Translations under genes and position numbers: made by a program | In this document: positions 47,682 to 62,491 of the stretch, one piece after another | How the letters are laid out: each line of letters begins with the position of its first letter | Position numbering within the stretch: the first letter of the stretch is position 1 | The notes under the pieces: generated by a model | The model's database searches: none | Told to the model about the DNA's origin: nothing | The model's input: the letters and a program-made list of their open reading frames with translations, nothing else | Origin: a virus | Lineage: Duplodnaviria; Caudoviricetes | Length of the DNA: 64,000 nt | Direction: 5' to 3' (one strand) | Virus record (IMG/VR): IMGVR_UViG_3300028738_000008

Positions 47682-50597
47682 ATGGCAAAACTAACTACTA
47701 ATCTCATAACAGGCATTGAGATGCTTCTAACGGGTTTCGATGTTAGCGGAAATACGGTCACCGAAACAGACCCCACAGTTCCAACATATGTTAAAGCCAT
47801 AACGACTGGCGATATATCTAGCTGGAACTCAAAACAACAAGCTGGTAATTATTTAGTTCAAGGTGATGTTATTGCTACCGATGCTTTGGGTCGTAATAAA
47901 TTGAAAATGTACATAACTGTTAATCCGTCAAACGTTGACATGAATGCATGTAACATTACTATACCAGCTCTAAAATACAATAAGAAGGTAGCATTTTCGC
48001 ATTCAAGTGACGATAGTGACATCCTTGTTCATTCTTTATGGCAAGAATATTGCAACGGACATTGGATAGATGATATACTGTGGATTAATAGTCAACCATT
48101 TCATGAATTGACTCCAAGAACTACTGGTAGTTATGCTCCACGAATTTTACGAAGTACTGACGGATGCGGAAATGACATTAGATTTAGAATGACTTTAGCT
48201 TATCTGTCATATAATGGTGCTGGAACTAATTTATTAACATCAACGAATCTTGCTTCACCATACTCACAGAAAACAGACATTCAAAAAATGCTTGATTTTT
48301 TTGGCGACATATCTAATCATGGTCAAGGTATTCCCAATGGCGGTAAACTTGGCGTTGATGGCGACTGGTATGACTCATTAACTGGAACAGAAAATAACTT
48401 TAATACAAATATGGGATTCAAGCCCGCCACAGTCTGTCAGGCTGACGGCGATATAAATTATTTGTATGCTGCGCAGATTATGGACGAGATTTATATGATG
48501 ACAGATAATCTGGTAAAATATGACCCATTTAATGCCGCTGATAACGCTGCGGACATAGATAAATTATGTATCAACAGACGATCCATAGTAAGCATGATAT
48601 CATTTACAGGTAATACAACAGACGTTCAAACAAGCTTAATTGCTGCTCATAATGCATGCGTAGCAGACCCTTCAAAAAGATATTGGTTAATTAGCGGCGG
48701 ACATAATTGGTCAGCATCGGCAAATATGCATAATGACGCCGTAGGCTTTCTTAATTATATTCATGATCATTATGGCGCAGGCGGCGACGATTCCATTTGG
48801 TTTGCAGGTATGTCAGAAATCTACGAATATTTGTTTTTAAGAAAACTTATAAAGAATAATATTGTGAAAACAATTTCAGGCAATACAATAATGTTTGAGT
48901 TTGAAATCCCAGATCCTTATAATGTGTCGTGGAAGGAATTATCATTCCTTATATCTGGAATCGCAAATATGAATGACGTTATCACATTCAGCGTTGATGG
49001 GCCAGCATATGGCGTATCCAAGGCTATTAATGACTCGTCATTATTGGTGAATATTGATTACAATAAAAACAGTAAAGCATTAGCTGAAAAGTATTTGGCT
49101 TTAGCTATTGCATCCCCAACAAGTGAGAGAGTTGCTGATGCATATTATTTTATAAATAGACTCAACCCAAATATCAACTCGGTGTTAAGAAGTAAATTAT
49201 CAACATATGCAATAGCACCAACATTAAACTCAATCGTTATCAATAATAATGACACCTCAACCGCAAATAGATTGGTAACAATATCTTTAAGTTATACTGG
49301 CTACATGTCCGAATATATGGTATCTGAAACATCAACATTTTCAGGTGCTACTTGGAATGTGTTAACAACAACATCATTTCCATATACTTTCGCAACAAGT
49401 ATCATTGAGACAAAAACGATATATGTGAAAATTAGAAATGCTTATGGCGTGTCAGCAACTATGGTCGATTCAATTAGTTATCTTGGCTTAGTGTTATCAT
49501 TTAATTCAGTTATTATTAATTCTGGCGCAGGTACTACACAAACTGCTGAGGTGGTTGTGTCTACGACATATAGTAATAGTACGCCGACATACTATAGAAT
49601 TGGCGAAACACCCGATCTATCAACAAATCTTTGGATTACATGGACTGGATCGCAAATATCCTATAACTTAACAGCATTGGGAACACGAACCGTATACGTT
49701 CAATTACAGGATAATATCACAACAACAAATACCCTTAGTGACTCGATTCTATATTCGCCAATTGATCTTAAATCGGTTATAATTAATAGTGGCTCAACAT
49801 CAACCCCCGATCAAATAGTACACATTGCATTTAATTACTTAGGATATCCTACTGATTATATGCTATCGGAAAATGCTGACTTTTCGGGTGCTACATGGAC
49901 TCAGTGGATAGGAGGCTCAGGATCAACCGTCACGTTTACTCTTAGTTTGAATAACGGTGTAAAAACGGTATATGGAAAAATGCGAGACATTAATAGTTAT
50001 GAGAGTGTTGTTGTTAATGATACAATATCATTAGCGATTGCATCTGCAAAAAGAATGAAAGCAAGTTTAACAACGTATAGTGGAACATCGCCATTTGTCA
50101 GTTTAGTATCAAATGGCGAAACTTGGAATCAAGGAAAACCATCAGTTACTTCAAAAGCATTGAAGGATACAAATGGTAATGCATACTGTAGTGTTATAGC
50201 ATCATACACTGGCATAATATCAGCATCTTTACCAATTCCTATGACTGGCACAGTTTATGACGCCGTGTTGTCAGGTGGGCTTGTATGGTACACAGGATCG
50301 CCAGTGGTTTACACTATACCGTTTATTATTACATTCACAGGTTTGGTTGTTGGTAAAATAATAAGAGTTAAAGTATTTGGCACTGATAACAGATCAACCG
50401 AGCAACATGGTGCAGTGACTATATCTGGCATTGGTTCTGAAACGCAGGCAATAAATCCTAAATATAATGTATCGAATATAAACATATTTGAAAACGTTGT
50501 AGTGCCAAGCAACGGTAGTATTACACTTAGTTTAGTTGGCGTTACGCCTGATACTAAAACTTGCATTCAGATTGTTGAATTTGAAGAAGTGGGTTAA
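47682..50597 (+). CDS. polysaccharide deacetylase-like domain plus Ig-like repeats
   Basis: LKYNKKVAFSHSSDD, ISNHG, ISGGH; four SV.IN.G..ST repeats with Y..SE...FSGATW. Confidence 0.55.
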   Translation: MAKLTTNLITGIEMLLTGFDVSGNTVTETDPTVPTYVKAITTGDISSWNSKQQAGNYLVQGDVIATDALGRNKLKMYITVNPSNVDMNACNITIPALKYNKKVAFSHSSDDSDILVHSLWQEYCNGHWIDDILWINSQPFHELTPRTTGSYAPRILRSTDGCGNDIRFRMTLAYLSYNGAGTNLLTSTNLASPYSQKTDIQKMLDFFGDISNHGQGIPNGGKLGVDGDWYDSLTGTENNFNTNMGFKPATVCQADGDINYLYAAQIMDEIYMMTDNLVKYDPFNAADNAADIDKLCINRRSIVSMISFTGNTTDVQTSLIAAHNACVADPSKRYWLISGGHNWSASANMHNDAVGFLNYIHDHYGAGGDDSIWFAGMSEIYEYLFLRKLIKNNIVKTISGNTIMFEFEIPDPYNVSWKELSFLISGIANMNDVITFSVDGPAYGVSKAINDSSLLVNIDYNKNSKALAEKYLALAIASPTSERVADAYYFINRLNPNINSVLRSKLSTYAIAPTLNSIVINNNDTSTANRLVTISLSYTGYMSEYMVSETSTFSGATWNVLTTTSFPYTFATSIIETKTIYVKIRNAYGVSATMVDSISYLGLVLSFNSVIINSGAGTTQTAEVVVSTTYSNSTPTYYRIGETPDLSTNLWITWTGSQISYNLTALGTRTVYVQLQDNITTTNTLSDSILYSPIDLKSVIINSGSTSTPDQIVHIAFNYLGYPTDYMLSENADFSGATWTQWIGGSGSTVTFTLSLNNGVKTVYGKMRDINSYESVVVNDTISLAIASAKRMKASLTTYSGTSPFVSLVSNGETWNQGKPSVTSKALKDTNGNAYCSVIASYTGIISASLPIPMTGTVYDAVLSGGLVWYTGSPVVYTIPFIITFTGLVVGKIIRVKVFGTDNRSTEQHGAVTISGIGSETQAINPKYNVSNINIFENVVVPSNGSITLSLVGVTPDTKTCIQIVEFEEVG

Positions 50598-50601
50598 AAC
50601 A

Positions 50602-50636
50602 CTTGCAAGATACTGATATTAATAGTATCTTGCAAG
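50602..50636 (+). promoter_or_regulatory. palindromic Bacteroidota-type promoter
   Basis: CTTGCAAGATACT-N9-AGTATCTTGCAAG; CTTG N20 TATCTTGC. Confidence 0.55.
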
Positions 50637-50653
50637 CCTAAAAAATATATGAT

Positions 50654-50827
50654 ATGAATGAACAATTAAAAATTGGCGACGTGGTTGATTTAAAATCAGG
50701 AGGCCCACGAATGACATTAGGTACTTTCCAGAGCAATGGAAAATGGCTTGCGCAGTGGTTTACTGGTGAAGAACTGAGACATGGCGAATTCCGTACTGAG
50801 CAAATCGAATTGTCAAAAGACGAATAA
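50654..50827 (+). CDS. YodC/DUF2158-like small protein (57 aa, absent from the ORF track)
   Basis: LKIGDVVDLKSGGPRMTL...WF. Confidence 0.85.
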   Translation: MNEQLKIGDVVDLKSGGPRMTLGTFQSNGKWLAQWFTGEELRHGEFRTEQIELSKDE

Positions 50828-50838
50828 TCAATGATTTC

Positions 50839-50890
50839 GTTTCACAATTCATGAAATAATTTACAGAATTTCATGAATTGTGAAACTTTT
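50839..50890 (+). terminator. 19-bp perfect stem followed by a T run
   Basis: GTTTCACAATTCATGAAAT-N10-ATTTCATGAATTGTGAAAC-TTTT. Confidence 0.7.
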
Positions 50891-50903
50891 TCAAAATATT
50901 TTG

Positions 50904-50942
50904 TATTTATATTTGCAAGTTACAAATTAATGATTACCTTTG
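50904..50942 (+). promoter_or_regulatory. composite promoter of tRNA operon 1
   Basis: TATTTATA (50904-11), TTTG (50912-15), N19, TACCTTTG (50935-42). Confidence 0.8.
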
Positions 50943-50971
50943 TACCGAAATAAAATTTTAAGAAATATACA

Positions 50972-51043
50972 ATGAGAACAATTTTTAACATAGTACCGCA
51001 GCATCAACCACAACCCTTGAAGTATCTTCAATCGAATGGCTGA
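50972..51043 (+). CDS. leader peptide 1, MRTIFNIVPQHQPQPLKYLQSNG
   Basis: 23-aa ORF between promoter and terminator; core codons CCG CAG CAT CAA CCA CAA CCC. Confidence 0.8.
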   Translation: MRTIFNIVPQHQPQPLKYLQSNG

Positions 51044-51071
51044 ACTATGTAAAAAATAAACATACATAATG

Positions 51072-51108
51072 ATCCCCTTTAATTGAAAGATTAAAGGGGA
51101 TTTTTTTT
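51072..51108 (+). terminator. attenuator terminator 1
   Basis: ATCCCCTTTAAT-TGAAAG-ATTAAAGGGGAT followed by a T run, ending 3 nt before the first tRNA. Confidence 0.88.
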
Positions 51109-51110
51109 AT

Positions 51111-51195
51111 CTAGGCGTAGCCCTGTAGTTGGTAGCAGTCCTGATTTGGGATCAGGCGTGGTAACACCTCGTGAGTTCGACCCTCACCGCTTAGA
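51111..51195 (+). tRNA. tRNA-Pro(TGG) with long variable arm
   Basis: CCTGA-TT TGG GA-TCAGG; acceptor CTAGGCG/CGCTTAG. Confidence 0.8.
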
Positions 51196-51205
51196 CAAAA
51201 TTTAT

Positions 51206-51282
51206 CTGGGAGTTATGCAGAGGCAATACAACGGTATTTTGGAAATATCGGCTCGTGAGTTCGATTCTCACCTCTCAGACCA
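51206..51282 (+). tRNA. tRNA-Pro(TGG)
   Basis: TT TGG AA loop; GTGAG TTCGATT CTCAC; encoded CCA. Confidence 0.8.
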
Positions 51283-51310
51283 CTGATTATCAGTTCTTTG
51301 AATAATTTAT

Positions 51311-51383
51311 AGAGTAGTATATCAATTGGCAGATTACCGCATTCGGGATGCGGAGGCTCTGGATTCGAGTTCCAGTTACTCTA
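51311..51383 (+). tRNA. tRNA-Pro(CGG)
   Basis: CCGCA-TT CGG GA-TGCGG. Confidence 0.82.
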
Positions 51384-51393
51384 CTGATTAGAT

Positions 51394-51467
51394 GGTGTCT
51401 ATAGTGCAATTGGTAGCATGACAGATTGTGGTTCTGTTGATGACAGGTTCGAACCCTGCTAGACACA
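51394..51467 (+). tRNA. tRNA-His(GTG)
   Basis: ACAGA-TT GTG GT-TCTGT; G-1 present. Confidence 0.85.
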
Positions 51468-51495
51468 CTAAATGCGAATTGCATTTTATTAAAAT

Positions 51496-51570
51496 GGTGA
51501 TTGTAGCTTAAACGGATAAAGCGCATGCCTGTGAAGCATGTATATGCGAGATCGTACCTCGTCTTTCACC
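51496..51570 (+). tRNA. tRNA-His(GTG), divergent
   Basis: CATGC-CT GTG AA-GCATG; G-1/C73; two T-T acceptor mismatches; atypical T-loop. Confidence 0.7.
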
Positions 51571-51590
51571 CTAATTTTAAATTAAAGATC

Positions 51591-52355
51591 ATGTATTACG
51601 TTGTACAGAAGAATGTTTTTAGGGAAGAAAATTACGATAATTTGATTATCGCTTTGAATCGGTTGGAGTTGCCATATGAGATCGTTGATGTATTACCTTT
51701 TGTAGACACCTTCGAATTCAAGACAACCAGAAAGGATGTTTTTCCTTTCGGAGCTGTTAAAATGTCAAGAATTGCCAAAGAATTGGACTGGAATCCAGGC
51801 TCTCAATTATGTGACAATCATGACTATAACGTATATAGTAAGTATTATAAAGAAAACTTGCTGAACTACGATTCAAGGATTATCAGGTTTGGCGATGATT
51901 TCTTTCAAACAGAAAGGTTCTTTGCACGTCCGACATTGGATACTAAAGTGTTTACTGGTCATGTGTTTGACATGGGCGAATGGATTAAGTTCAGAGACGA
52001 ATCCATTGTCAATGGACATAGCACTTTACTGAACACAGATACTGAAATTCAGATTTCTTCTGTAAAAAATATACAGAAAGAAATAAGGTTTTGGATTGTG
52101 AAAGGCGAAATCGCCACAGCAAGTCAGTATTCTCTGGGTGGAAGATTCTGTGTGAATGAAAACGTCGATCAGTCGGCATATGACTTCGTAAACAGAATGA
52201 TTAAGATATTCGAATTGAATGATACCTTTATTATAGATGCATGCCTTGTTAAAGGCGAATACAAAATAGTTGAATGCGGTTGCACAAACAGTGCTGGCTT
52301 CTATCGAGCAGATATGCAAAAGCTGCTTATGAAATTGGAAGACGCTTTCAATTAA
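51591..52355 (+). CDS. ATP-grasp protein (DUF4343/R2K-like) embedded in tRNA operon 1
   Basis: FFARP..DTKVFTG, IQKEIRFWIVKGEI, FIIDAC...YKIVECGC.NSAGFY; start corrected to ATG 51591 because the listed start lies inside tRNA-His. Confidence 0.8.
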   Translation: MYYVVQKNVFREENYDNLIIALNRLELPYEIVDVLPFVDTFEFKTTRKDVFPFGAVKMSRIAKELDWNPGSQLCDNHDYNVYSKYYKENLLNYDSRIIRFGDDFFQTERFFARPTLDTKVFTGHVFDMGEWIKFRDESIVNGHSTLLNTDTEIQISSVKNIQKEIRFWIVKGEIATASQYSLGGRFCVNENVDQSAYDFVNRMIKIFELNDTFIIDACLVKGEYKIVECGCTNSAGFYRADMQKLLMKLEDAFN

Positions 52356-52362
52356 TATAAAT

Positions 52363-52438
52363 TGCCTTATGGTGTAATTGGCAACACACCTGATTCTGAT
52401 TCAGTTGAGTGAAGGTTCGAGTCCTTCTAAGGCATCCA
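52363..52438 (+). tRNA. tRNA-Gln(CTG)
   Basis: TT CTG AT loop; U1-A72; encoded CCA. Confidence 0.85.
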
Positions 52439-52445
52439 ACTATAT

Positions 52446-52517
52446 TGCCCTGTTATGTAATGGCTAGCATACGACACTTTGACTGTCGGAGTTACGGTTC
52501 GAATCCGTACAGGGCAA
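52446..52517 (+). tRNA. tRNA-Gln(TTG)
   Basis: CGACA-CT TTG AC-TGTCG. Confidence 0.87.
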
Positions 52518-52603
52518 CAAAATTTAACGATATATTAGCGTTATTTAGAATCATTTTTTTTACATAATGTGCATATTTTTACTATTTATAGGTAAAATAT
52601 ACC

Positions 52604-53617
52604 ATGAAAATATTATTTATATTAAAAGAAAGATTTTATAATAATTCGTTAATCAAGTCATATGGACTAATGAATTCATCAACGCATGTTTCGAAGTATT
52701 TAGACTCTATTGGACTTTGCACAAAAGTAGTGAGAGTTGTTGATGGAAATTCAATTGATAAAGAGGTTCATGAATACAAACCAGATGTCGTCATTATTGA
52801 GGCTTTATGGGTAAGCGGCGAAAAACTAAAAGAACTTATTGAGATAAAGAGATATTCCCATATCAGATGGATTGTAAGAGTTCACAGCGATATTGGCTTC
52901 TTGGCTGCTGAGACTTTGGCATTGAAATATATTAATGATTACATTAGCCTCAATAAGCATAATTTGGTCATAGCACCAAACAATAAGGAATTTAATGAGT
53001 ATCTTACGAATGCTATGAATTTTAAATTCAAATATCTTCCCAATATTATTAATGTTAAATCATCAGATCATTCTTTAGTAAAGCATCCGCACTCAATAGA
53101 TATTGGATGTTTTGGTGCATTAAGAATACTGAAAAATCATGTATTTCAAGCTATGTGTGCAATGAGCGCAGCGGATATATTAAATAAGACATTGCGCTTT
53201 CACATTACTGTAGATGCGAACGCCGATAAAGCAAATCTAAATCCAGTATTAAAGAATTTGGAGGAATTATTTAAACGTAGTTCTCATGAATTGATCTGTC
53301 ATCCTTGGATGGAGAATGACGAGTTTCAGGGTCTGGTTAGAAAAATGGACATAGGCTTACAGCTTTCATATACCGAAAGCTTCAACATTGTCGCAGCAGA
53401 TTTTGTTAATAATGATATTCCAATTATCGTATCAGATGCCATTGATTGGATGCCAGATATATTTAAAACATCTACAATTGATTACGAAGAAGCGACTAAT
53501 AAAATAGTTTCAATCTATAAATCCAGAACTTTGGGTCATAAAAAGAATGTTGCTTTTGATAGTTTGGTAAAATATAATCGTAAGGCTCAACAAGAATGGC
53601 TAGATTTCATTATCTAA
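52604..53617 (+). CDS. glycosyltransferase (GT-B, GT4-like)
   Basis: IGCFGALRILKNH, LQLSYTESFNIVAADFV...PII. Confidence 0.8.
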   Translation: MKILFILKERFYNNSLIKSYGLMNSSTHVSKYLDSIGLCTKVVRVVDGNSIDKEVHEYKPDVVIIEALWVSGEKLKELIEIKRYSHIRWIVRVHSDIGFLAAETLALKYINDYISLNKHNLVIAPNNKEFNEYLTNAMNFKFKYLPNIINVKSSDHSLVKHPHSIDIGCFGALRILKNHVFQAMCAMSAADILNKTLRFHITVDANADKANLNPVLKNLEELFKRSSHELICHPWMENDEFQGLVRKMDIGLQLSYTESFNIVAADFVNNDIPIIVSDAIDWMPDIFKTSTIDYEEATNKIVSIYKSRTLGHKKNVAFDSLVKYNRKAQQEWLDFII

Positions 53618-53666
53618 AGTCAAGTGCTTATTATGAAATTAAAAGTATTTATTTTAAAATAATATC

Positions 53667-54437
53667 ATGACAGTAACGAATAGTAAACAGAGACTTTTTG
53701 AAATGATGTCCAGATTGGATGGCAATTTCAATTCAAGTCTAAACGAAAATGACGATAAGCTTGTTGATAGAGAGTTAATAGAAAACAAACGAACCGAAAA
53801 GAAGAAGGTTATCAATGAAAACAAGCTTTTCGAAATGAATAATAAGTTGAATGAGTTGGGTCAAAACGATCCTTGGGATGCTGAGGTTGATGCAGCATCA
53901 CGTAGAGCTGAAATTAAAGCTTATTATGGTGGTAATCATACTCAGGGTGATGACGATGATGATTACGATGTAAAACCTCGTAGAGCTAGATTTTATTCTG
54001 ATGATGAAGATGAAATGGACGAAAATAAGCTGACTGAATATCCTTCCGAGAAACCCACACATGGTCAAGACCCTAATTGGAGTATTGACCCAAAAAATCC
54101 TTCGGGATGTCTACCTAATCTTCCTATGGATGAGGGCGATATGAATGAGGCTATTAACGTTGGTGACGTTTTACAATATTTAGATGACGGCACATTTTGG
54201 AAAATAATTGATATAACCAACGGAATAGCAACAGCTTTTGACGGATTTAAAACAAAAGGAAAAATTGAGGCGAACAAATTAGTTGCCAATAATAATCTAA
54301 AAATATCTAAAGATGTTGACGGTAGGTTATTTAAAAGCTTAGTAGCGAAAGCAAAAGAGCATATTAAGAATAATGGCACAGATGAGGATGATTATATTAA
54401 TAGCGGCTACCCAATGGACGAAAATGAGCTGAACTAA
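53667..54437 (+). CDS. acidic hypothetical protein, putative internal head protein
   Basis: N-terminus SKQRLFEMMSRLDGNF is shared with 57226..58299. Confidence 0.65.
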   Translation: MTVTNSKQRLFEMMSRLDGNFNSSLNENDDKLVDRELIENKRTEKKKVINENKLFEMNNKLNELGQNDPWDAEVDAASRRAEIKAYYGGNHTQGDDDDDYDVKPRRARFYSDDEDEMDENKLTEYPSEKPTHGQDPNWSIDPKNPSGCLPNLPMDEGDMNEAINVGDVLQYLDDGTFWKIIDITNGIATAFDGFKTKGKIEANKLVANNNLKISKDVDGRLFKSLVAKAKEHIKNNGTDEDDYINSGYPMDENELN

Positions 54438-54477
54438 TAAAATAGTGAATTATTTTAAACTTTTTTGATTTTTTTAC

Positions 54478-54516
54478 TATTTATATTTGCAGGTATCAAA
54501 AATTGTATTACCTTTG
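54478..54516 (+). promoter_or_regulatory. composite promoter of tRNA operon 2
   Basis: TATTTATA, TTTG, N19, TACCTTTG. Confidence 0.8.
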
Positions 54517-54546
54517 TACCGAAATTAATATTTAAGAATAGAAACA

Positions 54547-54639
54547 ATGAGAAATTTACTTAACATAGAATTATTGGCAGTGGATCAGGTCAACCTCCTA
54601 TTATGGGCGGATGAAGATAGATTATGCCATGCTGGTTAA
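54547..54639 (+). CDS. leader peptide 2, MRNLLNIELLAVDQVNLLLWADEDRLCHAG
   Basis: 30-aa ORF between promoter and terminator; 19 of 30 residues are L/D/E/V/A/W. Confidence 0.78.
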   Translation: MRNLLNIELLAVDQVNLLLWADEDRLCHAG

Positions 54640-54664
54640 GTAGAGTTTAAGAATATTTTAAACT

Positions 54665-54695
54665 AAACCCCCAGCATACGTGTTGGGGGTTTTTT
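54665..54695 (+). terminator. attenuator terminator 2 with competing antiterminator
   Basis: AAACCCCCAGCA-TACG-TGTTGGGGGTTTTTT; ATGCTGG (54629-35) can pair with CCAGCAT (54671-77). Confidence 0.88.
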
Positions 54696-54739
54696 GTTTA
54701 TGTACGTTATTTGACATGTTGGGTTATAAAATTAAAATT

Positions 54740-54811
54740 GGTCTATTGGGGTATGGGTTATCCTTTGTGGTTGTCAGCCATGAGAAGCGAGTTCAAGTCT
54801 CGCATAGACCG
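54740..54811 (+). tRNA. tRNA-Asp(GTC)
   Basis: TT GTC AG loop; G73. Confidence 0.8.
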
Positions 54812-54870
54812 CACTAAGCATTATGAGAGTACTTGCCACTAGGGTAAGCCAACCTAAATTGCTTTTTCAT

Positions 54871-54944
54871 ACCTTCGTAGGGGAGTGGTCGTCCCTGTCG
54901 CACTGTCTATGCGAAGATCGCCAGTTCAAATCTGGTCGGGGGTG
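54871..54944 (+). tRNA. tRNA-Asp(GTC)
   Basis: TCGCA-CT GTC TA-TGCGA; G73. Confidence 0.82.
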
Positions 54945-54973
54945 CTGGTTTCATAATAAATGAAACATTTAAT

Positions 54974-55046
54974 GCTCGGTTCATCTAACTGGTTAGGATA
55001 GGTGACCTTCAATCATCCAATACGGATTCAAGTTCCGTACCGAGTA
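54974..55046 (+). tRNA. tRNA-Glu(TTC)
   Basis: CC TTC AA loop (C33). Confidence 0.78.
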
Positions 55047-55056
55047 CTTTTTTCAT

Positions 55057-55131
55057 GCTCCTATCGTCTAGTTGGTTCAAGGCGTCTGTTTTACAAGCAG
55101 AATATCGGTGGTTCGAATCCATCTGGGAGCA
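55057..55131 (+). tRNA. tRNA-Val(TAC)
   Basis: TCTGT-TT TAC AA-GCAGA. Confidence 0.85.
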
Positions 55132-55140
55132 CAAATTTAT

Positions 55141-55213
55141 GGCTTAGTAGACCAACGGCAGAGTCATCAGACTTAAACCCTGTACAGTGTGGGTTCGAAT
55201 CCCACCTAAGCTA
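55141..55213 (+). tRNA. tRNA-Leu(TAA), short variable arm
   Basis: CT TAA AC loop with weak anticodon stem; canonical T arm. Confidence 0.72.
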
Positions 55214-55220
55214 CAAATAT

Positions 55221-55294
55221 GGCTCAGTATCCCAATTGGCAGAGGAAGTTGACTCAAAAACAACTAGTTGTCGGTTCGAATCCGACTTGAGCTA
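55221..55294 (+). tRNA. tRNA-Leu(CAA), short variable arm
   Basis: GTTGA-CT CAA AA-ACAAC. Confidence 0.8.
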
Positions 55295-55305
55295 CAATAT
55301 AATAT

Positions 55306-55378
55306 GGATCGGTAGACCAACGGCAGAGTCACTTGTTTTAGAAGCAAGCCAGTGAGGGTTCGAATCCCTCTCGATCTA
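55306..55378 (+). tRNA. tRNA-Leu(TAG), short variable arm
   Basis: CTTGT-TT TAG AA-GCAAG. Confidence 0.82.
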
Positions 55379-55388
55379 CAATATTTAT

Positions 55389-55475
55389 GGGGAATTGATG
55401 GAATGGTAGACATCCTAGTTTTAGAAACTAGTGCGAAATAATAGTAGCGTGTGAGTTCGAGTCTCACATTCCTCA
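55389..55475 (+). tRNA. tRNA-Leu(TAG), long variable arm
   Basis: CTAGT-TT TAG AA-ACTAG. Confidence 0.87.
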
Positions 55476-55595
55476 CGCAATATTCAATGGGAACGCATGT
55501 GTTAACATCGTGGCGTCCGTCACGTAGATGGGAAACAGAACAGGGAGCATGCCTAGAATCTCGTTTAGGGTTGGAGATTTACTTTAATAATTATG

Positions 55596-55668
55596 GGGCA
55601 GTAGCTCAATTGGCTAGAGCACTACACTTGCAATGTAGAGGTTGTGGAATCGTCCTCCATCTGCTCCA
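55596..55668 (+). tRNA. tRNA-Ala(TGC)
   Basis: CTACA-CT TGC AA-TGTAG; G3-U70; atypical T-loop. Confidence 0.85.
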
Positions 55669-55696
55669 CTGATAATCAGGAGATTATCTATTTTAC

Positions 55697-55786
55697 ACGT
55701 CTATGTCCGAGTGGCTTAAGGAACTGGTCTCCAAAACCAGCGTGGGTGACACCATATCCAAGGTTCGAATCCTTGTTGGCGTGCCA
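55697..55786 (+). tRNA. tRNA with Trp anticodon (CCA) and long variable arm
   Basis: CTGGT-CT CCA AA-ACCAG; G73; encoded CCA; 90 nt. Confidence 0.8.
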
Positions 55787-55853
55787 GAGAATAAATGTTG
55801 CGAATCTTGTAACATTTATTCTTTTTTTTCGTATAATTTGTAAAAATAACAAT

Positions 55854-56042
55854 ATGAGAGTTAAGATTGGCGATAAAATTGTGGATACAGAAGACGAGCC
55901 TATCATGCTTATTTTCGAAGACGATGCTGAAAGAAAAATGGTTGCGAATACAATTGGCGACATGATTTCAGGCTGTAAACGTTATTGCATGTATCCAAAA
56001 GATACCGATATTGATACTATTAATTTTTTCATGATATGTTAA
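55854..56042 (+). CDS. hypothetical protein
   Basis: Start corrected to MRVKIGDK; the listed upstream extension overlaps tRNAs. Confidence 0.65.
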   Translation: MRVKIGDKIVDTEDEPIMLIFEDDAERKMVANTIGDMISGCKRYCMYPKDTDIDTINFFMIC

Positions 56043-56716
56043 TTATTTCAAAGAAAAAGGACTATTACGATGGCGTTGTTCAAACAACAGGCATTGATAA
56101 GACAATTGTTTATAATAGAAAGCAAAATGATATCAGAGATTCATTCGATGATTATAAAAAGCTTCCAGCGGACTTAATTAAGTTGGTTGAAAATCTCACA
56201 GCCTTTCATTTGGATACTAAGAAGACTAATTTGGAATTAAAGGGGATTTACATAATCGCTTTTTGCGGACAAATGTATGTCGCATGGGAAATGATTGACA
56301 GAAAACCATTCAATGATTATGATCCGAAATCAATTATAACGTATGATTTAAAAGGCATGCAAGAAATTGTTATCGATAAAACATGGCGTGATGCTGTTGG
56401 CATTGTAGACGCTTATAGAAACCTTGTTAATTACGACCCTATGAAGCTTCACAGATTATATAATAGTCCTGTTTTCGCCATCGATACGGCATTTGTAAGG
56501 TATGGCGCACGTGACTCCAACTTCATACTCAACCCAACGTTGAAAACGTATAAATTCTTCAAGCTTTTTGATTCATTTCAGGCTTTGCAAGAAATTCAAA
56601 TGTTTATTTCTGGTGTGTTGGGAACTGGCGAGAATAAGATGATAGAAGTAGCTGATAAATATAAAATAGAAAGTCATGGATTCGACAAAACATCCTTCCG
56701 AAAAGAAAAAAAGTGA
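56036..56716 (+). CDS. hypothetical phage protein
   Basis: MLIISKKKDYYD...QEIQMFISGVL...GFDKTSFRK. Confidence 0.75.
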   Translation: MLIISKKKDYYDGVVQTTGIDKTIVYNRKQNDIRDSFDDYKKLPADLIKLVENLTAFHLDTKKTNLELKGIYIIAFCGQMYVAWEMIDRKPFNDYDPKSIITYDLKGMQEIVIDKTWRDAVGIVDAYRNLVNYDPMKLHRLYNSPVFAIDTAFVRYGARDSNFILNPTLKTYKFFKLFDSFQALQEIQMFISGVLGTGENKMIEVADKYKIESHGFDKTSFRKEKK

Positions 56717-56785
56717 GCCTGAAAACTGCTGCGGCAAAACTGCCAATGTCATTGAGCAGAGAAAGAAAAGTAAAGTAAAAAAGAA

Positions 56786-57190
56786 ATGAGATTATTAATA
56801 TTACTTTTTTACTTACCAATATTATCCTTTTCGCAGACCACTGTGATCGGTCATGTTTCAGCAACTGTAATTGAGTCTGTGTTTGTCAAGAATGTGTATA
56901 ATTCTGGGTATACGGCAATAGATAAGAGTATCGACTCAACAACCGTTACATCTGCAATCATAACTACAACGCAGTTCAATCCGAATATTTTTACGATTAC
57001 AATTCCAACAACAAGTAAAATTGTTAAGAATACTAATGGCAAGGATTCAATGAGTGTTTTCAATTTTAAAACCGTTGGGTTTAAAATTGACACAATTACA
57101 ATAAATGGGATAGTAGCACCAATGCCAAAGCAATCTTCTGGCAATTATATATCGACTACGCCCATACCAATCATAGTAAATTATAATTGA
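56786..57190 (+). CDS. secreted beta-rich protein (DUF4402-like)
   Basis: Signal peptide MRLLILLFYLPILSFS-Q; C-terminal GNY.....IIVNYN. Confidence 0.6.
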   Translation: MRLLILLFYLPILSFSQTTVIGHVSATVIESVFVKNVYNSGYTAIDKSIDSTTVTSAIITTTQFNPNIFTITIPTTSKIVKNTNGKDSMSVFNFKTVGFKIDTITINGIVAPMPKQSSGNYISTTPIPIIVNYN

Positions 57191-57223
57191 AAAAGGGAAG
57201 CTTTATTAGCCTCCCTTTTTCTT
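57190..57223. terminator. bidirectional terminator
   Basis: AAAAAGGGAAGCT-TTATT-AGCCTCCCTTTTT. Confidence 0.75.
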
Positions 57224-57225
57224 GT

Positions 57226-58299
57226 TTAGTATTTGGTTGAGTATGTGGCATACATTTTGAAGTCATTTTTCGTTAAAGCAGAGTCTCCGCCATCACGACC
57301 AGACATCTTGTCAGCCAATTTTTTTGCCAATTTAGCATTGTATATCAAAACATTTACCATTTGCGGATTAAACTCATATTTATCAATGTTATTTAAATAT
57401 TCGTCGTCAGCTGGGTTATACATTAAGGTAATACTGGCATTTTTTTCTTGTGAGAAGAATGTAAATGCAAATATGTCCCCATTATTAGCACCTCTTAACT
57501 CGACTTTAGCAAATCTAAATGGAACTGGAGCACTTTGACCAGATGATCTATCCATAATCATAAGCTGAACATCAATGTTATTAAGATACTTCTTAAATAA
57601 GCTATCGAGAACATCTTGTCTTATCTTTCTAGTTCGTGAATCGGTTCTATCCGCCTTAAATGCTTTAGCTCCCATTTCGGGCCCGATTTCATCAATAGCC
57701 AAATCCGCTTTAAATGACTTATTATCAGCATTTTTATCATAAACATCGCCATCATTGAACGATTTAATGCCGTCACGTGGACGAACGTCTTGATCTTCAT
57801 CCATATCATTTTCGTCATCAACAGTATATTTTCCAATATCCTCAACTCCAACTCCTTCAATTGAATCGTCAGTAGTTCCGTCATTAAGATCGGCTTCATC
57901 CATTTCGCCTTCATCTGACATTCCATCATCGCCAAAGAAATTTTCTCTACTCTCAACAAAGTCACCCCAAGAGGTCGCTAGAAATTGTTTGTTCTTTGTA
58001 TCGTAAACAATTGTTTTTGTATATGTATCACCCATATTAACATATATGCCAATTGCATCCCTGAAATAATTGTCAACGAATTCATTTTCATCTGTAATAG
58101 ATTCCACACCATATCCTTCAAGATATTTATTAGCCGCATCCATAGCATTTTCAGCGGCTGCGTGTGATAAATGTTGTGTATTAAGTTTCTCAGCATATTT
58201 TTCGATCATATCGCCATTTTCATCGGCTTCATTTGCGTTGAAGTTTTGATCCATTCTACCCATGACTTCAAATAGTCTGTTTTTACTAGTTTTTTTCAT
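57226..58299 (-). CDS. acidic hypothetical protein, putative internal head protein
   Basis: N-terminus SKNRLFEVMGRMDQNF is shared with 53667..54437. Confidence 0.7.
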   Translation of the reverse strand: MKKTSKNRLFEVMGRMDQNFNANEADENGDMIEKYAEKLNTQHLSHAAAENAMDAANKYLEGYGVESITDENEFVDNYFRDAIGIYVNMGDTYTKTIVYDTKNKQFLATSWGDFVESRENFFGDDGMSDEGEMDEADLNDGTTDDSIEGVGVEDIGKYTVDDENDMDEDQDVRPRDGIKSFNDGDVYDKNADNKSFKADLAIDEIGPEMGAKAFKADRTDSRTRKIRQDVLDSLFKKYLNNIDVQLMIMDRSSGQSAPVPFRFAKVELRGANNGDIFAFTFFSQEKNASITLMYNPADDEYLNNIDKYEFNPQMVNVLIYNAKLAKKLADKMSGRDGGDSALTKNDFKMYATYSTKY

Positions 58300-58305
58300 A
58301 TTGTT

Positions 58306-58737
58306 TTAATTAAATCCTACTATGCAGGTATTATTTTTAAAATCGAATTGTAAGTCAGCAGCATATAATGTTCCGCCATTTTGTAATGTCGCTCCGCCGA
58401 TAACATACTTCCATTTATATTCGTTAATGTTTTTCTTTGTGCTTGAAATAAGCTCGTCACTATTCTTATCACGTAATTCGAGATCAAAAGTACCTGTCAA
58501 GCCATTTATAACAATTTTCATAAGTCCAATACCCTCTTCGTCAGGATTAAAGCCAACACCCCAGCTAAGTACAATACTACTATCATTAATATCTGACTCA
58601 TACTCGGATGATATGTTATCATAATTAAAAAAATGTGACTGAGCAATTGGTTGTGTGAAGGCGAATTGTCCGTTTGTGAATGAGTAATTCTCATTGATTG
58701 ACTTTATTTCGTCGTCGATTATTTTGTTAATATTCAT
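58306..58737 (-). CDS. hypothetical protein
   Basis: 143 aa, begins MNINKIIDDEIKSINE. Confidence 0.7.
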   Translation of the reverse strand: MNINKIIDDEIKSINENYSFTNGQFAFTQPIAQSHFFNYDNISSEYESDINDSSIVLSWGVGFNPDEEGIGLMKIVINGLTGTFDLELRDKNSDELISSTKKNINEYKWKYVIGGATLQNGGTLYAADLQFDFKNNTCIVGFN

Positions 58738-58840
58738 AATGTCAATATTTTTATAATAAATACTTACACAAACTCTTTTCGTTTGTATTTATGTTAAAAC
58801 AATTTAAAGCATATTTTTTTATTAAAAATACCTGATTTAT

Positions 58841-60463
58841 ATGAAAACATTACACGAATCGCCATTTGTATATTTATATGAAAACTCTGGCCATAAGGAA
58901 AAAACTGTTCGTAGCATTAATATAAATGCAAGTAAGGCACAAGCAATATACGTTCCAGTGCCACCACCAACAGTTAACGCCTTATTAATGACTTTTAATG
59001 ATATATCAGGTACTTTTGTTACAGACCCATCATCTGTTGAAGAATGGAACATATTTTTTGATTTACCAGTAAATGGTAATCCGTTTACATCTGTCTCAAT
59101 ATCTTCAAATACCGTTAGTTTATTTGGCGGTAGTGACATAACTCTAAAAAATTACTTATTCGGCGATACTGATTTTGGAAACAATCTGTTGGAGTTCATT
59201 GATGATAGCGGAATCATTATTAATAGTGGTAATGGAGCATTTAGCGATACAGGCGAAATTGGTAATGGATGCCACAATATAACAAAAATATCAATGTCAG
59301 CATGCGTATCATTAGGTGATGAAACATTTGCTGATTGCTATTCATTAACAGATTTATCATTACCATTCGATAGTTATGTTACCTTGGGTTCAAATATTTT
59401 TCGTTCTTGTGGTATGGCATCATTAAGCTTTTCATCATTAACAATGGCTGGAGATAGCTGCTTCAATAGCTTGTCACTTTTAACTGAATTTAGTGCACCA
59501 ATATTAATCGTTGCGGATATGAATTGTTTTTCTGGATGCGTTGCAATATCAGCAATATCATTGCCGTCATTAACAACGGCTGGAGACGGCTGTTTCAGTA
59601 ATTGCGTATCGTTATCAATTCCTGATCTACCAATTGCAACAACTGCTGGAGTTAACTGCTTTTACAATTGTTCGACATTATCATCATTATCATTACCAGA
59701 TTTAGTTACTGCTGGAGAAAGCTGTTTCAGTAATTGCGTATCGTTATCAACTGTCGATCTGCCATTATTAACAACTGCTGGAAATGGTTGCTTTTACGGT
59801 TGTCCATTATCATCATTATCATTACCAGATTTAGTTACTGCTGGAGAAAGCTGCTTTATGGGAATAAGATCATTTACTACCATGAATTTACCATCCTTAT
59901 CATCGATAGGTACTACTTGTTTTCAAGATTGCGCATCTTTGTTAGCAGTTAATTTACCAGCATTAATCACAATGGGCGAAGGCTGTTTTAATGGATGCAC
60001 ATCTTTACTAACAGTAGACATGCCACAGTGTCAAACAGCTGGCGGCGGTTGCTTTAGTTATTGTACGTCGTTAACATCAGTAGACATGGCATCACTGATT
60101 TCAATGGGAAATTCATTTTTTTTAAACTGCATATCTTTAGTGACATTAAATCTTCCTTTATTATCGTCTGCCACGCAATCTTGTTTTGCGACCTGTACAT
60201 CATTGGTAGACATCAGTTTACCATCATTAATATCAACTGGTAATTATTTCTTTAACGGCTGTACGTTATTAACAAACATCAGTTTACCGTCATGCGTTAG
60301 TTTAGGACTTACTTTATATAATGATTCAGTTTTCAATAATATTACAGGCAAAAAAATAACTTTAACAGTGCCAACAGCTTTAATGACTTGTAATAGTGGA
60401 TCGCCTGATGGTGATATAGCTTATTTACAGGCTAATAACATAGTAACACTGATAACAGTTTAA
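58841..60463 (+). CDS. BspA-type leucine-rich repeat protein
   Basis: LLMTFNDI module, about 14 L.TAG..CF..C..L repeats, TVPTALMTCNSGSPDGDIAYL cap. Confidence 0.82.
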   Translation: MKTLHESPFVYLYENSGHKEKTVRSININASKAQAIYVPVPPPTVNALLMTFNDISGTFVTDPSSVEEWNIFFDLPVNGNPFTSVSISSNTVSLFGGSDITLKNYLFGDTDFGNNLLEFIDDSGIIINSGNGAFSDTGEIGNGCHNITKISMSACVSLGDETFADCYSLTDLSLPFDSYVTLGSNIFRSCGMASLSFSSLTMAGDSCFNSLSLLTEFSAPILIVADMNCFSGCVAISAISLPSLTTAGDGCFSNCVSLSIPDLPIATTAGVNCFYNCSTLSSLSLPDLVTAGESCFSNCVSLSTVDLPLLTTAGNGCFYGCPLSSLSLPDLVTAGESCFMGIRSFTTMNLPSLSSIGTTCFQDCASLLAVNLPALITMGEGCFNGCTSLLTVDMPQCQTAGGGCFSYCTSLTSVDMASLISMGNSFFLNCISLVTLNLPLLSSATQSCFATCTSLVDISLPSLISTGNYFFNGCTLLTNISLPSCVSLGLTLYNDSVFNNITGKKITLTVPTALMTCNSGSPDGDIAYLQANNIVTLITV

Positions 60464-60502
60464 ATTAATTTGAAGAATTTAAACTTTTTTATAAAAAATC
60501 AC

Positions 60503-60542
60503 TATTTATACTTGCAGATGTAATTTATTTGAATTACTTTTG
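60503..60542 (+). promoter_or_regulatory. composite promoter of tRNA operon 3
   Basis: TATTTATA, CTTG, N20, TACTTTTG. Confidence 0.8.
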
Positions 60543-60571
60543 CACCAGTTAAAAACAATTAAAAAATAGAA

Positions 60572-60649
60572 ATGATGAATGCAACACTTAAATACGGAAA
60601 GACTACTAAATCTTATAAAAAATATAAGATGAAGAAGGACTGTGTGTAA
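60572..60649 (+). CDS. leader peptide 3, MMNATLKYGKTTKSYKKYKMKKDCV
   Basis: 25-aa ORF with 8 Lys and 3 Tyr between promoter and terminator. Confidence 0.8.
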   Translation: MMNATLKYGKTTKSYKKYKMKKDCV

Positions 60650-60671
60650 GTGAACTATATATAATATATTC

Positions 60672-60706
60672 AAAAACCCAGTCTTAATTTAAGTCTGGGT
60701 TTTTTT
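60672..60706 (+). terminator. attenuator terminator 3 with competing antiterminator
   Basis: AAAAACCCAGTCTTAA-T-TTAAGTCTGGGTTTTTTT; AGGACTG (60636-42) can pair with CAGTCTT (60679-85). Confidence 0.85.
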
Positions 60707-60720
60707 ATGTTAAAAAATTC

Positions 60721-60792
60721 GCTCCTATAGCTTAATGGTAAAGCCTTCGACCTTTAATCGAATGACCCCTGAATCAGTATCAGGTGGGAGCA
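60721..60792 (+). tRNA. tRNA-Lys(TTT), divergent
   Basis: TTCGA-CC TTT AA-TCGAA (C33); T-loop ATCAGTA. Confidence 0.75.
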
Positions 60793-60808
60793 CAGAGTAT
60801 AGTAAGTC

Positions 60809-60879
60809 GCTTCTATAGCTCAATGGTAGAGCTTGTAACTTTTAATTATAAGACCTCGGTTCGATTCCGAGTAGGAGCA
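60809..60879 (+). tRNA. tRNA-Lys(TTT)
   Basis: CT TTT AA loop; canonical T arm. Confidence 0.85.
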
Positions 60880-60889
60880 CAAAATTATT

Positions 60890-60962
60890 GCCTTCGTAGC
60901 TTAATCGGGAAAGCTGTACACTCTTAATGTAAGGAGCGTGAGTTCGATCCTCACCGAGGGCA
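60890..60962 (+). tRNA. tRNA-Lys(CTT)
   Basis: CT CTT AA loop. Confidence 0.85.
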
Positions 60963-60969
60963 CAAATAT

Positions 60970-61051
60970 GGGATGGATGGTAAGCAGGCGAAATCAGCGG
61001 ATTGTAAACCCGTCGCTACCAGCTATTTAGGTTCGAATCCTAACCGTCCCA
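60970..61051 (+). tRNA. tRNA-Tyr(GTA)
   Basis: TT GTA AA loop; long variable arm. Confidence 0.82.
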
Positions 61052-61110
61052 CGTGAGAGACCGTTATAATTTCAAAGTCCACTTGGTATCGGAAGCGTAG
61101 AAATTAATTT

Positions 61111-61194
61111 GGGGATGTATGCAAATGGTTGAAGCAAGCGGTCTGTAAAACCGTGACGTAAGAGACGATGCTGGTTCGAATCCAGCCAGCCCCA
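61111..61194 (+). tRNA. tRNA-Tyr(GTA)
   Basis: GCGGT-CT GTA AA-ACCGT; long variable arm. Confidence 0.87.
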
Positions 61195-61256
61195 CTTGGT
61201 AGACTGTTATAATTTCATAGAACCCATTAAGTGTGGTATGCGTGGAAATTAAAAAT

Positions 61257-61337
61257 GGCGGCAGACGGGTAATGGAAATCCTAGGGGCATGCAATCCTGA
61301 GTCACAGACTATGTTGGTTCGAATCCAACCGTCGCCA
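61257..61337 (+). tRNA. atypical tRNA-like gene of unresolved identity
   Basis: Acceptor GGCGGCA/CGTCGCC and T arm GTTGG TTCGAAT CCAAC; anticodon region GGGGCATGCAATCCT is non-canonical. Confidence 0.5.
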
Positions 61338-61361
61338 CAATGAATTAAAAATTAATTAGAT

Positions 61362-61601
61362 ATGGAAACATTAGTAGAAATCATCAAAGGAAATCGTGCC
61401 GTTATGTCGCACGTATGCAATGCTAAAGCTTATTTTATCATTGAAACAATGAATAACAAGTATCAACTTGAAATGGACAGCACTGATGGTGATTGGAAGA
61501 CAACACACATGCAGACTGAATACGCTGCTATCACATTAATGCGATGGATACGCCGAGGTATTGACGAAAAGGACGGAACATTTATATCACTATATGAATA
61601 A
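61362..61601 (+). CDS. hypothetical protein at the end of tRNA operon 3
   Basis: 79 aa ORF followed by a terminator. Confidence 0.7.
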   Translation: METLVEIIKGNRAVMSHVCNAKAYFIIETMNNKYQLEMDSTDGDWKTTHMQTEYAAITLMRWIRRGIDEKDGTFISLYE

Positions 61602-61623
61602 GTTACAATCAGCTTGGAAATAA

Positions 61624-61658
61624 GAATGGCGATTGAAGAAATTTAGTCGCCATTTTTT
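61624..61658 (+). terminator. intrinsic terminator
   Basis: AATGGCGATT...AGTCGCCATT followed by a T run. Confidence 0.75.
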
Positions 61659-61697
61659 GTAACCTTTTTGGTTTCTTAACGTATAAGTATTAAAATT

Positions 61698-61769
61698 GGC
61701 TCGTTAGTTCAGCGGTTAGGGCGTCTGACTCTAAATCAGAAGGCATGGTTTCGAATACCATACGAGCCG
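61698..61769 (+). tRNA. amber suppressor tRNA (anticodon CTA)
   Basis: TCTGA-CT CTA AA-TCAGA; perfect acceptor stem GGCTCGT/ACGAGCC; G73. Confidence 0.88.
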
Positions 61770-61783
61770 CAAATAATTATAAT

Positions 61784-62080
61784 ATGAGAAAAATAACTGT
61801 TGAAAATGTGATGGCTGATGATCCTATGAAGGTACTCCAGCAATGGCGTAGCGTTAATGATAAGATCACCAGATTCATAAACGTGGCAAATCCAAGGGTT
61901 TATATGTTCATATTTGGCGAATCAGAAGGCATGCGACTATGGGAACATTTCGTAAACAATTGCGACAGACATGATTTCCAGAAATTTATGACATATTTAA
62001 CATCAGAGCAATACAATGACCTGATGATCAATTTATATTATAATGACGGCATGTATTCATTGGTGCATTATAACGATTAA
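61784..62080 (+). CDS. hypothetical protein
   Basis: Start corrected to MRKITVENV; the listed start lies inside the suppressor tRNA. Confidence 0.7.
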   Translation: MRKITVENVMADDPMKVLQQWRSVNDKITRFINVANPRVYMFIFGESEGMRLWEHFVNNCDRHDFQKFMTYLTSEQYNDLMINLYYNDGMYSLVHYND

Positions 62081-62090
62081 TAAAAAAAGA

Positions 62091-62122
62091 CTTGCATAAT
62101 TGAATTATTTAGTTTATTTTTG
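62091..62122 (+). promoter_or_regulatory. Bacteroidota sigma-type promoter for the Pth2-like gene
   Basis: CTTG N20 TATTTTTG, 35 nt before ATG 62158. Confidence 0.7.
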
Positions 62123-62157
62123 CAGTCTATTAGTATTTAATATTAAAAAGTAAGATT

Positions 62158-62487
62158 ATGACGTAGGTTAAATTAGTAACAGTAACAAGGAAAGACCTCA
62201 AAGCAGGTTATCAATTAGTACAGTCAGCACACGGCTTAGCTGAGTTTGCACATGTATATCCAACACATTTCAATGATTGGATGCGAGATTCAAAGTATCT
62301 CGTTTCATTGTCAGTCGATAATGAAGAAAACCTCAAAGAATTATTTAGTGAATTAACCAGTAATGGCGCAATCATTGTGGCATTTAACGAACCTGATATA
62401 AATGATCAGCTGACATCGATATGCTTTTATGGTACGCCAGAGATTAGGAAATTGACTGAACATTTAGATTTAGCATTAAAAAATTAA
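62158..62487 (+). CDS. peptidyl-tRNA hydrolase type 2-like protein with in-frame TAG at codon 3
   Basis: ATG ACG TAG GTT AAA...; MT*VKLVTVTRKDLKAGYQLVQSAHGLAEF...YLVSLSVDNEE...FNEPDINDQLTSICF resembles Pth2 K...V.R.DL....AQ.AHA; frame continuous with ORF 62281..62487. Confidence 0.82.
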
Positions 62488-62491
62488 CGTT

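Follow-up and report, generated by a model that had tools for sequence, protein, structure and literature searches.

The 64,000-nucleotide stretch of the Caudoviricetes virus record IMGVR_UViG_3300028738_000008 analysed here (referred to as the window) carries three clusters of tRNA genes, each preceded by a promoter, a short open reading frame (ORF), an AT-rich hairpin and an intrinsic terminator. The program ARAGORN detected 21 tRNA genes, all on the + strand and comprised between positions 51111 and 61770. Two tRNAs skipped by ARAGORN at default settings were added with Rfam: a Glu(UUC) tRNA at 54974-55046 (48.7 bits, anticodon loop CCTTCAA) and a Lys(UUU)-like tRNA at 60721-60792 (53.5 bits, anticodon loop CCTTTAA), the latter found with the same sequence in a close relative of the phage. 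Both carry C at position 33 (C33), a position where U is near-universal in tRNAs. The initial annotation of this DNA had recognized the three clusters but overlooked these two genes; its description of one architecture occurring three times is borne out, all the parts being located in the three units. From the sequence, each cassette is very probably a ribosome-mediated (leader-peptide) transcription attenuator placed on a phage tRNA operon. The features of the three units are listed below, where segments 1 and 2 designate the predicted pairing strands of the leader transcripts.

50883-52518, + strand: unit 1, composed of promoter, leader ORF, hairpin, terminator and tRNA cluster
50883-50942, + strand: promoter cassette of unit 1, with a AAACTTTTT tract and a TAnnTTTG copy, TATATTTG, at 50908-50915
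50912-50942, + strand: promoter elements of unit 1, TTTG at 50912-50915 (-33), 19 nt, then the -7 box TACCTTTG at 50935-50942
50972-51043, + strand: leader ORF 1, 23 codons and a stop, with PQHQPQP at codons 9-15 (50996-51016); segment 1 at 50981-50994, segment 2 at 51027-51039 (antiterminator) and 51044-51057 (1:2 helix)
51071-51110, + strand: terminator of unit 1, a 14-bp stem (51071-51102) and a T-run
51111-52518, + strand: operon 1, Pro(UGG) x2, Pro(CGG), His(GUG) x2, an ATP-grasp (R2K) gene at 51591-52355, Gln(CUG) and Gln(UUG)
54458-55824, + strand: unit 2, same composition as unit 1
54458-54516, + strand: promoter cassette of unit 2, with TTTG at 54486-54489, a 19-nt spacer and TACCTTTG at 54509-54516
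54547-54639, + strand: leader ORF 2, 30 codons and a stop, 19 of 29 residues being L, A, V, D, E or W; segment 1 at 54556-54568, segment 2 at 54629-54643 (last codons, stop and 4 nt more)
54644-54698, + strand: AT-rich hairpin (54644-54664) and terminator (54665-54692, then a T-run) of unit 2
54740-55824, + strand: operon 2, Asp(GUC) x2, Glu(UUC, C33), Val(UAC), Leu(UAA), Leu(CAA), Leu(UAG) x2, Ala(UGC) and Trp(CCA)
55786-55824, + strand: terminator at the end of operon 2
60481-61336, + strand: unit 3, same composition as unit 1
60481-60542, + strand: variant promoter cassette of unit 3, in which the -33 element is CTTG (60511-60514) and the -7 box TACTTTTG (60535-60542)
60572-60649, + strand: leader ORF 3, 25 codons and a stop, with 8 Lys (4 AAA, 4 AAG) and 3 Tyr (one UAC, two UAU); segment 1 at 60585-60597, segment 2 at 60636-60652
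60673-60708, + strand: terminator of unit 3, a 14-bp stem with one mismatch (60673-60703) and a T-run
60721-61336, + strand: operon 3, Lys(UUU)-like C33 at 60721-60792, Lys(UUU), Lys(CUU), Tyr(GUA) x2 and a weak tRNA-like element at 61257-61336

The Bacteroidota sigma-A promoter consensus is composed of a -33 TTTG element, a spacer of about 19 nt and a -7 box TAnnTTTG. Exact matches to this consensus are found twice in the 64 kb (units 1 and 2), a count that is not above chance since 2.7 are expected in shuffled sequence. The promoter function of the cassettes is supported by their position and by their homology: the cassettes, of about 60 nt, can be aligned between units 1 to 3 and with the one that precedes a fourth unit in the close relative. 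The composite promoter previously described is thus retained as a putative Bacteroidota-type -33/-7 promoter on the strength of these homologous cassettes, not of the motif count. Each leader ORF starts with ATG about 30 nt past the -7 box. The intrinsic terminators consist of GC-rich stems of 12-14 bp followed by a T-run and end 3-50 nt 5' of the first tRNA; folding z-scores are of -5.0 to -5.9. The short AT-rich hairpin is weak and present as described, with the amendment that it is nested inside a predicted antiterminator. In the whole window, both strands included, the three leaders are the only ORFs below 40 residues to be closely followed by a strong terminator. A permissive Rfam scan of positions 50000-64000 (E up to 1) returned tRNAs and chance-level matches, and no leader, riboswitch or T-box family; the match of PyrG_leader at 51042-51113 (30.5 bits for a threshold of 65, E=1) was rejected as fortuitous.

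The codons of each leader correspond to the tRNAs encoded behind it. Every anticodon species of the three operons (16/16) is represented in its own leader by one or more cognate codons, and the Glu(UUC) tRNA recovered in cluster 2 matches the Glu residues of leader 2. Compared with the composition of the long ORFs of the phage, the residues of the cluster's own set are enriched with binomial P values of 6e-5, 3e-4 and 2e-5 in leaders 1, 2 and 3, respectively, and with values of 4e-2 to 2e-7 over 11 units. Moreover, leader 1 is devoid of D, E, A and W, leader 2 of P, K and Y, and leader 3 of P, Q, H, E and W, so that the exclusions noted in the initial annotation are all correct, as is the enrichment. 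In each of the two genomes tested, the observed assignment of leaders to clusters ranks first among the 24 permutations. The fraction of in-set residues averages 0.531 over 17 distinct tRNA sets versus 0.264 +/- 0.038 after permutation, and this value is reached by 0 of 100,000 permutations. The codon-level match, calculated with strict wobble, is 0.466 versus 0.201 +/- 0.03, reached by 0 of 50,000 permutations. Three false units were returned by the automated finder: an ORF of 79 residues before a suppressor tRNA, and ORFs of 46 and 15 residues (loci L052 and L082), which display no antiterminator complementarity. The 46-residue ORF was kept in the residue-level permutation, which makes it conservative, and was excluded from the codon-level and structure tests; the 79- and 15-residue ORFs are absent from the permutation, having only a suppressor tRNA downstream.

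The close relative was located with the exact promoter pattern and corresponds to one IMG/VR contig of 148 kb; the same phage is represented by a metagenome contig of 328 kb. In addition, the ATP-grasp gene of operon 1 was used as a marker to collect 8 viral and 80 metagenome loci. The close relative possesses counterparts of units 1 to 3 and a fourth unit, whose leader of 64 codons (L033:3083-3277) has a central part composed of N, I, S, T, G, R, C, M and F and precedes tRNAs for Cys, Ile, Phe, Gly, Met, Asn, Ser, Thr and Arg. With these nine remaining amino acids, the four leaders of the close relative cover all 20. By synteny, the fourth unit of the window phage itself would be expected about 8 kb past the end of the window. 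Leader 3 is identical in the two phages, and leaders 1 and 2 differ by substitutions between residues of their own sensed sets, P to Q and D to E, respectively. A diverged leader 3 orthologue, rich in K and Y, precedes Lys, Tyr and Lys tRNAs. The orthologues of leader 1 reorder P, Q and H (PQHQPQP, PQPQQHPQ, PQQHPQ, APQQHQP) while keeping the composition, which fits a selection on codon content and not on the peptide. The leader reading frames are also kept across an in-frame insertion of 14 codons.

The leader composition changes where the tRNAs are regrouped. In a phage of 425 kb, with 46% identity in the marker protein, the leader that precedes a Gln/Leu cluster has the core LLQQLQLLQL, a Glu/Asp/Val/Phe/Ile/Asn/Trp cluster follows the leader FFGNINVEFNSNFIEDW, a Tyr/Thr/Pro/Ala/Ser/Cys/His/Gly/Val cluster follows a leader of 34 codons composed almost wholly of those residues, and tRNAs with a CAU anticodon or specific for Lys and Arg follow a leader rich in M, I (AUA codons), K and R. 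On other contigs, an Ile/Thr/Ser cluster comes after the leader SSISISTTITSSSIT, a Cys/Val/Leu cluster after LLLSCLLLVV and a Ser/Thr/Ile/His cluster after HSIHTISISSST. A scan with a 14-base pattern of leader 2 recovered 16 further distinct orthologous leaders, and 16/16 precede Asp/Glu/Val/Leu/Ala/Trp tRNAs. The comparison of leader composition and tRNA set in related phages, proposed earlier as a check, thus reveals co-variation. About 35 distinct leaders were gathered from metagenome contigs of peat, sediment, freshwater and gut type, and tRNA units of this design are widespread and probably a general feature of a clade of large phages.

Within each unit, the leader transcript can adopt alternative pairings. 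In ribosome-free folds of all three leaders, the N-terminal codons (segment 1) pair with the region of the stop codon (segment 2) and the terminator also forms. Nascent transcripts were then folded with the RNA cut 5' of the 3' arm of the terminator and blocked up to the leading edge of the ribosome. Under these conditions, an antiterminator is obtained in unit 1 with the A site on codons 9-15, which coincide exactly with the PQHQPQP run, and in units 2 and 3 with the A site on codons 3-23 and 3-17, respectively. With the ribosome at or near the stop codon, no antiterminator is obtained in any of the three units. The predicted antiterminator pairs 51027-51039 with 51075-51087 in unit 1, 54629-54635 (AUGCUGG) with 54671-54677 (CCAGCAU) in unit 2, where it encloses the AT-rich hairpin (-11.3 kcal/mol), and 60636-60647 with 60676-60685 in unit 3 (-10.1 kcal/mol). 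In units 2 and 3 its upstream strand is located at -12 to -1 relative to the stop codon.

These pairings are specific to each unit. In a set of 21 units, the 5' arm of the terminator pairs with the last codons of its own leader at -13.0 kcal/mol and with those of the other units at -7.15 kcal/mol (0/20,000 permutations). The 1:2 helix is specific too, with -12.4 kcal/mol for the own partner versus -7.8 kcal/mol for the other units (0/20,000 permutations). The terminators are not homologous between lineages, which prevented the counting of pairs in alignments. Compensatory changes were compared arm by arm within the leader-2 family (18 leaders). Segment 2 and the terminator arm occur there as CAGUCGGG/CCCGACUG, UAGUCGGG/CCCGACUA, AUGUCGGG/CCCGACAU, GGUCGAGA/UCUCGACC and, in the window, AUGCUGG/CCAGCAU. 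Since the two strands change together, the C-terminal residues of these leaders are dictated by the sequence of the terminator. The predicted layout is that of the four-segment trp-type attenuator, with mutually exclusive 1:2, 2:3 and 3:4 pairings.

Together, the co-variation of leaders and tRNAs, the permutation tests and the unit-specific pairings support the ribosome-stalling, codon-matched attenuator initially suggested for each tRNA operon. Transcription would begin at a strong host-type promoter and the emerging leader ORF would be translated. If decoding is fast, the ribosome would reach the stop codon and mask segment 2, the 3:4 terminator would form and the RNA polymerase would halt before the first tRNA. 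If any of the sensed codons is read slowly for want of its charged tRNA, the ribosome would stall in the central block and leave segment 2 free to pair with the 5' arm of the terminator (2:3), allowing read-through into the tRNA genes. In an untranslated leader, segment 1 would hold segment 2, and termination would be the default. The outcome would be a negative feedback in which the output of phage tRNAs is matched to the decoding demand, with one sensor per group of tRNAs. We infer here the translation of the leaders, the direction of the response and the physiological trigger; the candidates for the latter, among which the sequence cannot tell, are the codon demand of late infection, the loss of host tRNA synthesis, cleavage by anticodon nucleases and amino-acid starvation.

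Several observations weigh against this interpretation. The antiterminator of unit 1 is weak: its duplex is of -5.2 kcal/mol, no better than shuffled sequences and only 17th of 21 in rank, and in the constrained fold it amounts to an interrupted 11-bp helix. Leader 1 orthologues of more distant relatives display strong antiterminators, of -14 to -18 kcal/mol. Equilibrium folds that include the ribosome footprint always keep the terminator and cannot discriminate the states; because equilibrium always favours the terminator, the switch must be kinetic. Some in-set codons (24-29 of leader 2 and 18-22 of leader 3) are too near segment 2 for a stall there to give read-through. Finally, additional tRNA is of no help if the amino acid itself is short, so that the benefit of such a switch depends on the kind of shortage.

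A refinement of the attenuator model would make it chiefly a counter-defence. The few leaders would form a partitioned monitor covering the 20 amino acids, and host tRNAs removed by an anticodon nuclease or by a phage-induced shut-off would cause a leader to stall and replacement tRNAs, including the C33 variants, to be released. That the partitioned monitor serves mainly such an inducible counter-defence is a tentative proposal. Phage tRNAs are able to rescue against PARIS (PMC11464382) and against the retron PtuAB (PMC11555353), and unit 3 pairs Lys with Tyr, the reported targets of PARIS (PMC11464382) and of the PtuAB effector (PMC11555353), respectively. The first tRNA past terminator 3 is the Lys(UUU)-like C33 tRNA and operon 2 includes the Glu(UUC) C33 tRNA; these two are candidate anticodon-loop variants that may escape anticodon nucleases. 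On the other hand, the four leaders of the close relative are not restricted to the known nuclease targets, the tRNA groupings of the distant relative show no obvious defence logic, and the phage has no known host or known defence gene. A switch dedicated to sensing the destruction of host tRNAs by nucleases of the PrrC, PARIS AriB or retron PtuAB type therefore appears doubtful, and since the leaders of the close relative span every amino acid, a general control of tRNA supply is the safer statement.

It is improbable that the units are sensors of general translation health, opened by any slowdown of translation (few ribosomes, inhibitors), with a codon content that would be incidental. A stall anywhere inside the leader would indeed free segment 2, and the inducible trn array of Anabaena reacts to general translational stress (PMC8421152). 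However, the codon content tracks the downstream anticodons in every lineage examined, the permutations never reach the observed match, and several differently composed leaders per genome would be pointless for such a sensor. An arrangement due to chance or devoid of sensing (untranslated ORFs, terminators insulating from upstream transcription, or peptides with a function of their own) is hardly credible. In its favour, AT-rich DNA is rich in short ORFs (218 of 20 residues or more in 15 kb) and Rfam offers no matching leader family, only the sub-threshold PyrG_leader. Against it, chance is excluded for the composition by the binomial and permutation tests and for the pairings by the own-versus-other 2:3 and 1:2 permutations and the compensatory changes, the frames survive the 14-codon insertion, the residue order is shuffled at constant composition, and no other module with a short ORF and a terminator exists in the 64 kb.

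The proposed attenuators can be compared with several known systems. The classical attenuators are represented by trpL, hisL, leuL and pheL of E. coli and Salmonella and by the multivalent thrL and ilvGMEDA leaders. They resemble the phage units by a short leader rich in regulatory codons, by the 1:2, 2:3 and 3:4 segments, by the location of segment 2 at the end of the leader ORF and by the read-through that follows the stalling of the ribosome, and the thr and ilv leaders also sense several amino acids. They differ in that they control biosynthetic enzymes, whereas units 1 to 3 contain tRNAs and one embedded ATP-grasp gene, and not genes of amino-acid biosynthesis or synthetases. As the regulated tRNAs read the sensing codons, the product would feed back directly on the sensor. 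Furthermore, the classical leaders contain a run of one codon, whereas the phage leaders have about one codon per downstream anticodon, for up to about 10 amino acids, and are borne by a phage with a Bacteroidota-type promoter. The pheM leader attenuates the aminoacyl-tRNA synthetase operon pheST; it is similar in that leader-peptide attenuation acts on a component of the decoding apparatus and not on a biosynthetic enzyme, and different in that a synthetase for a single amino acid is controlled, on a bacterial chromosome. In T-box riboswitches, the choice between terminator and antiterminator likewise reports the supply of a specific tRNA through a codon-like specifier, but the uncharged tRNA is bound directly, with neither translation nor leader peptide, and the controlled genes are those of synthetases, biosynthesis and transport.

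Among tRNA arrays, the closest inducible one found in the literature is the trn operon (L-array) of Anabaena sp. PCC 7120, a supernumerary and horizontally mobile array (PMC8421152, PMC10272220) whose spare tRNAs, as proposed for the phage units, remain silent until an impairment of translation switches them on. It is controlled differently, through repression of the promoter by TrcR via direct repeats over the -10 box (PMC8421152, PMC10272220), and it responds to general translational stress, with no codon matching; these papers mention neither a leader peptide nor attenuation. The tRNA clusters of T4-like, T5-like and huge phages are comparable phage-borne arrays that supplement or replace host tRNAs and are used against tRNA-cleaving defences (PMC11464382, PMC11555353). 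A full-text literature search found no demand-sensing control of phage tRNA clusters and no published description of leader-peptide attenuation of tRNA genes, in agreement with the earlier claim that such a system was apparently undescribed. As far as this search shows, the mechanism would be classical, and the new elements would be the tRNA genes as target, a product that feeds back directly on its own sensor and the checklist of one codon per anticodon.

The tRNA genes are usually regarded as constitutive or controlled by growth rate, and those of phages as codon-usage add-ons or as decoys against tRNA-cleaving defences. If the attenuator model is true, a tRNA would be sensed via the decoding of its own codons. 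Among the supply-and-demand loops known in the translation apparatus, this one would be the most direct, and it would explain how large phages with dozens of tRNA genes avoid flooding the cell. The cassettes would also serve as codon-specific sensors of tRNA availability, transferable into reporters, and could reveal which tRNAs are limiting or attacked during the infection of Bacteroidota hosts.

Other particularities of the tRNA genes were observed. The sole match of the tRNA-like element 61257-61336 is a weak tRNA-Sec (21 bits, E=0.045); it has a good T-arm and acceptor stem and an odd anticodon region with GCA, and it falls within the end coordinate given in the initial annotation. Bacterial tRNA-Leu usually has a long variable arm. 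The three tRNAs with Leu anticodons at 55141-55379 are of only 74-75 nt and lack this arm. Unusual lengths are also displayed by the Pro tRNA at 51111-51196 (86 nt) and the Trp tRNA at 55697-55786 (90 nt). A suppressor tRNA(CUA), labelled 'Pyl' by ARAGORN, is located at 61698-61770 with its own upstream terminator (61626-61653) and no leader of the cluster type, as expected because sense codons cannot report on a suppressor tRNA. Translated with code 11, the long ORFs of the window remain intact. In the 425-kb relative, CUA and UCA suppressor tRNAs are found at separate sites (L045, L046). The same phage shows, between the terminator of its first leader and its first tRNA, a region of about 770 nt with neither a long ORF nor a detected tRNA (L042, reverse strand, 2234-3008, reverse complement), which may be an unrecognised structured RNA or decayed tRNAs. 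In the close relative, an ORF of about 100 residues absent from the window lies between the first and second tRNA-Pro of operon 1 (L032, 2864-3175); by its position within the tRNA array it is tentatively considered as homing-endonuclease-like. Insertions of ORFs recur in the tRNA arrays of the relatives, for example at L033 4686-5096.

Concerning this large, uncultured peat phage itself, no relative was found in INPHARED, where the sole matches correspond to chance similarity of tRNA-Leu to Streptomyces phages. Searches of sequencing runs recovered the window sequence in many DNA runs of peat metagenomes, and no RNA run is among the runs listed. The window is phage DNA, with genes for a large terminase subunit (20647-23139, - strand), a portal protein (18633-20567) and a major head protein (8806-10446). 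The ATP-grasp gene, situated between the His and Gln tRNAs of operon 1 (Pfam R2K_3, E=8e-15), adjoins tRNA genes in at least 80 metagenome loci, with 33-95% identity. GT4-conflict is a glycosyltransferase family of conflict systems. An ORF of 337 residues located 3' of operon 1 (52604-53617) shows a sub-threshold Pfam match to this family (E=0.008, 15.6 bits for a cut-off of 26).

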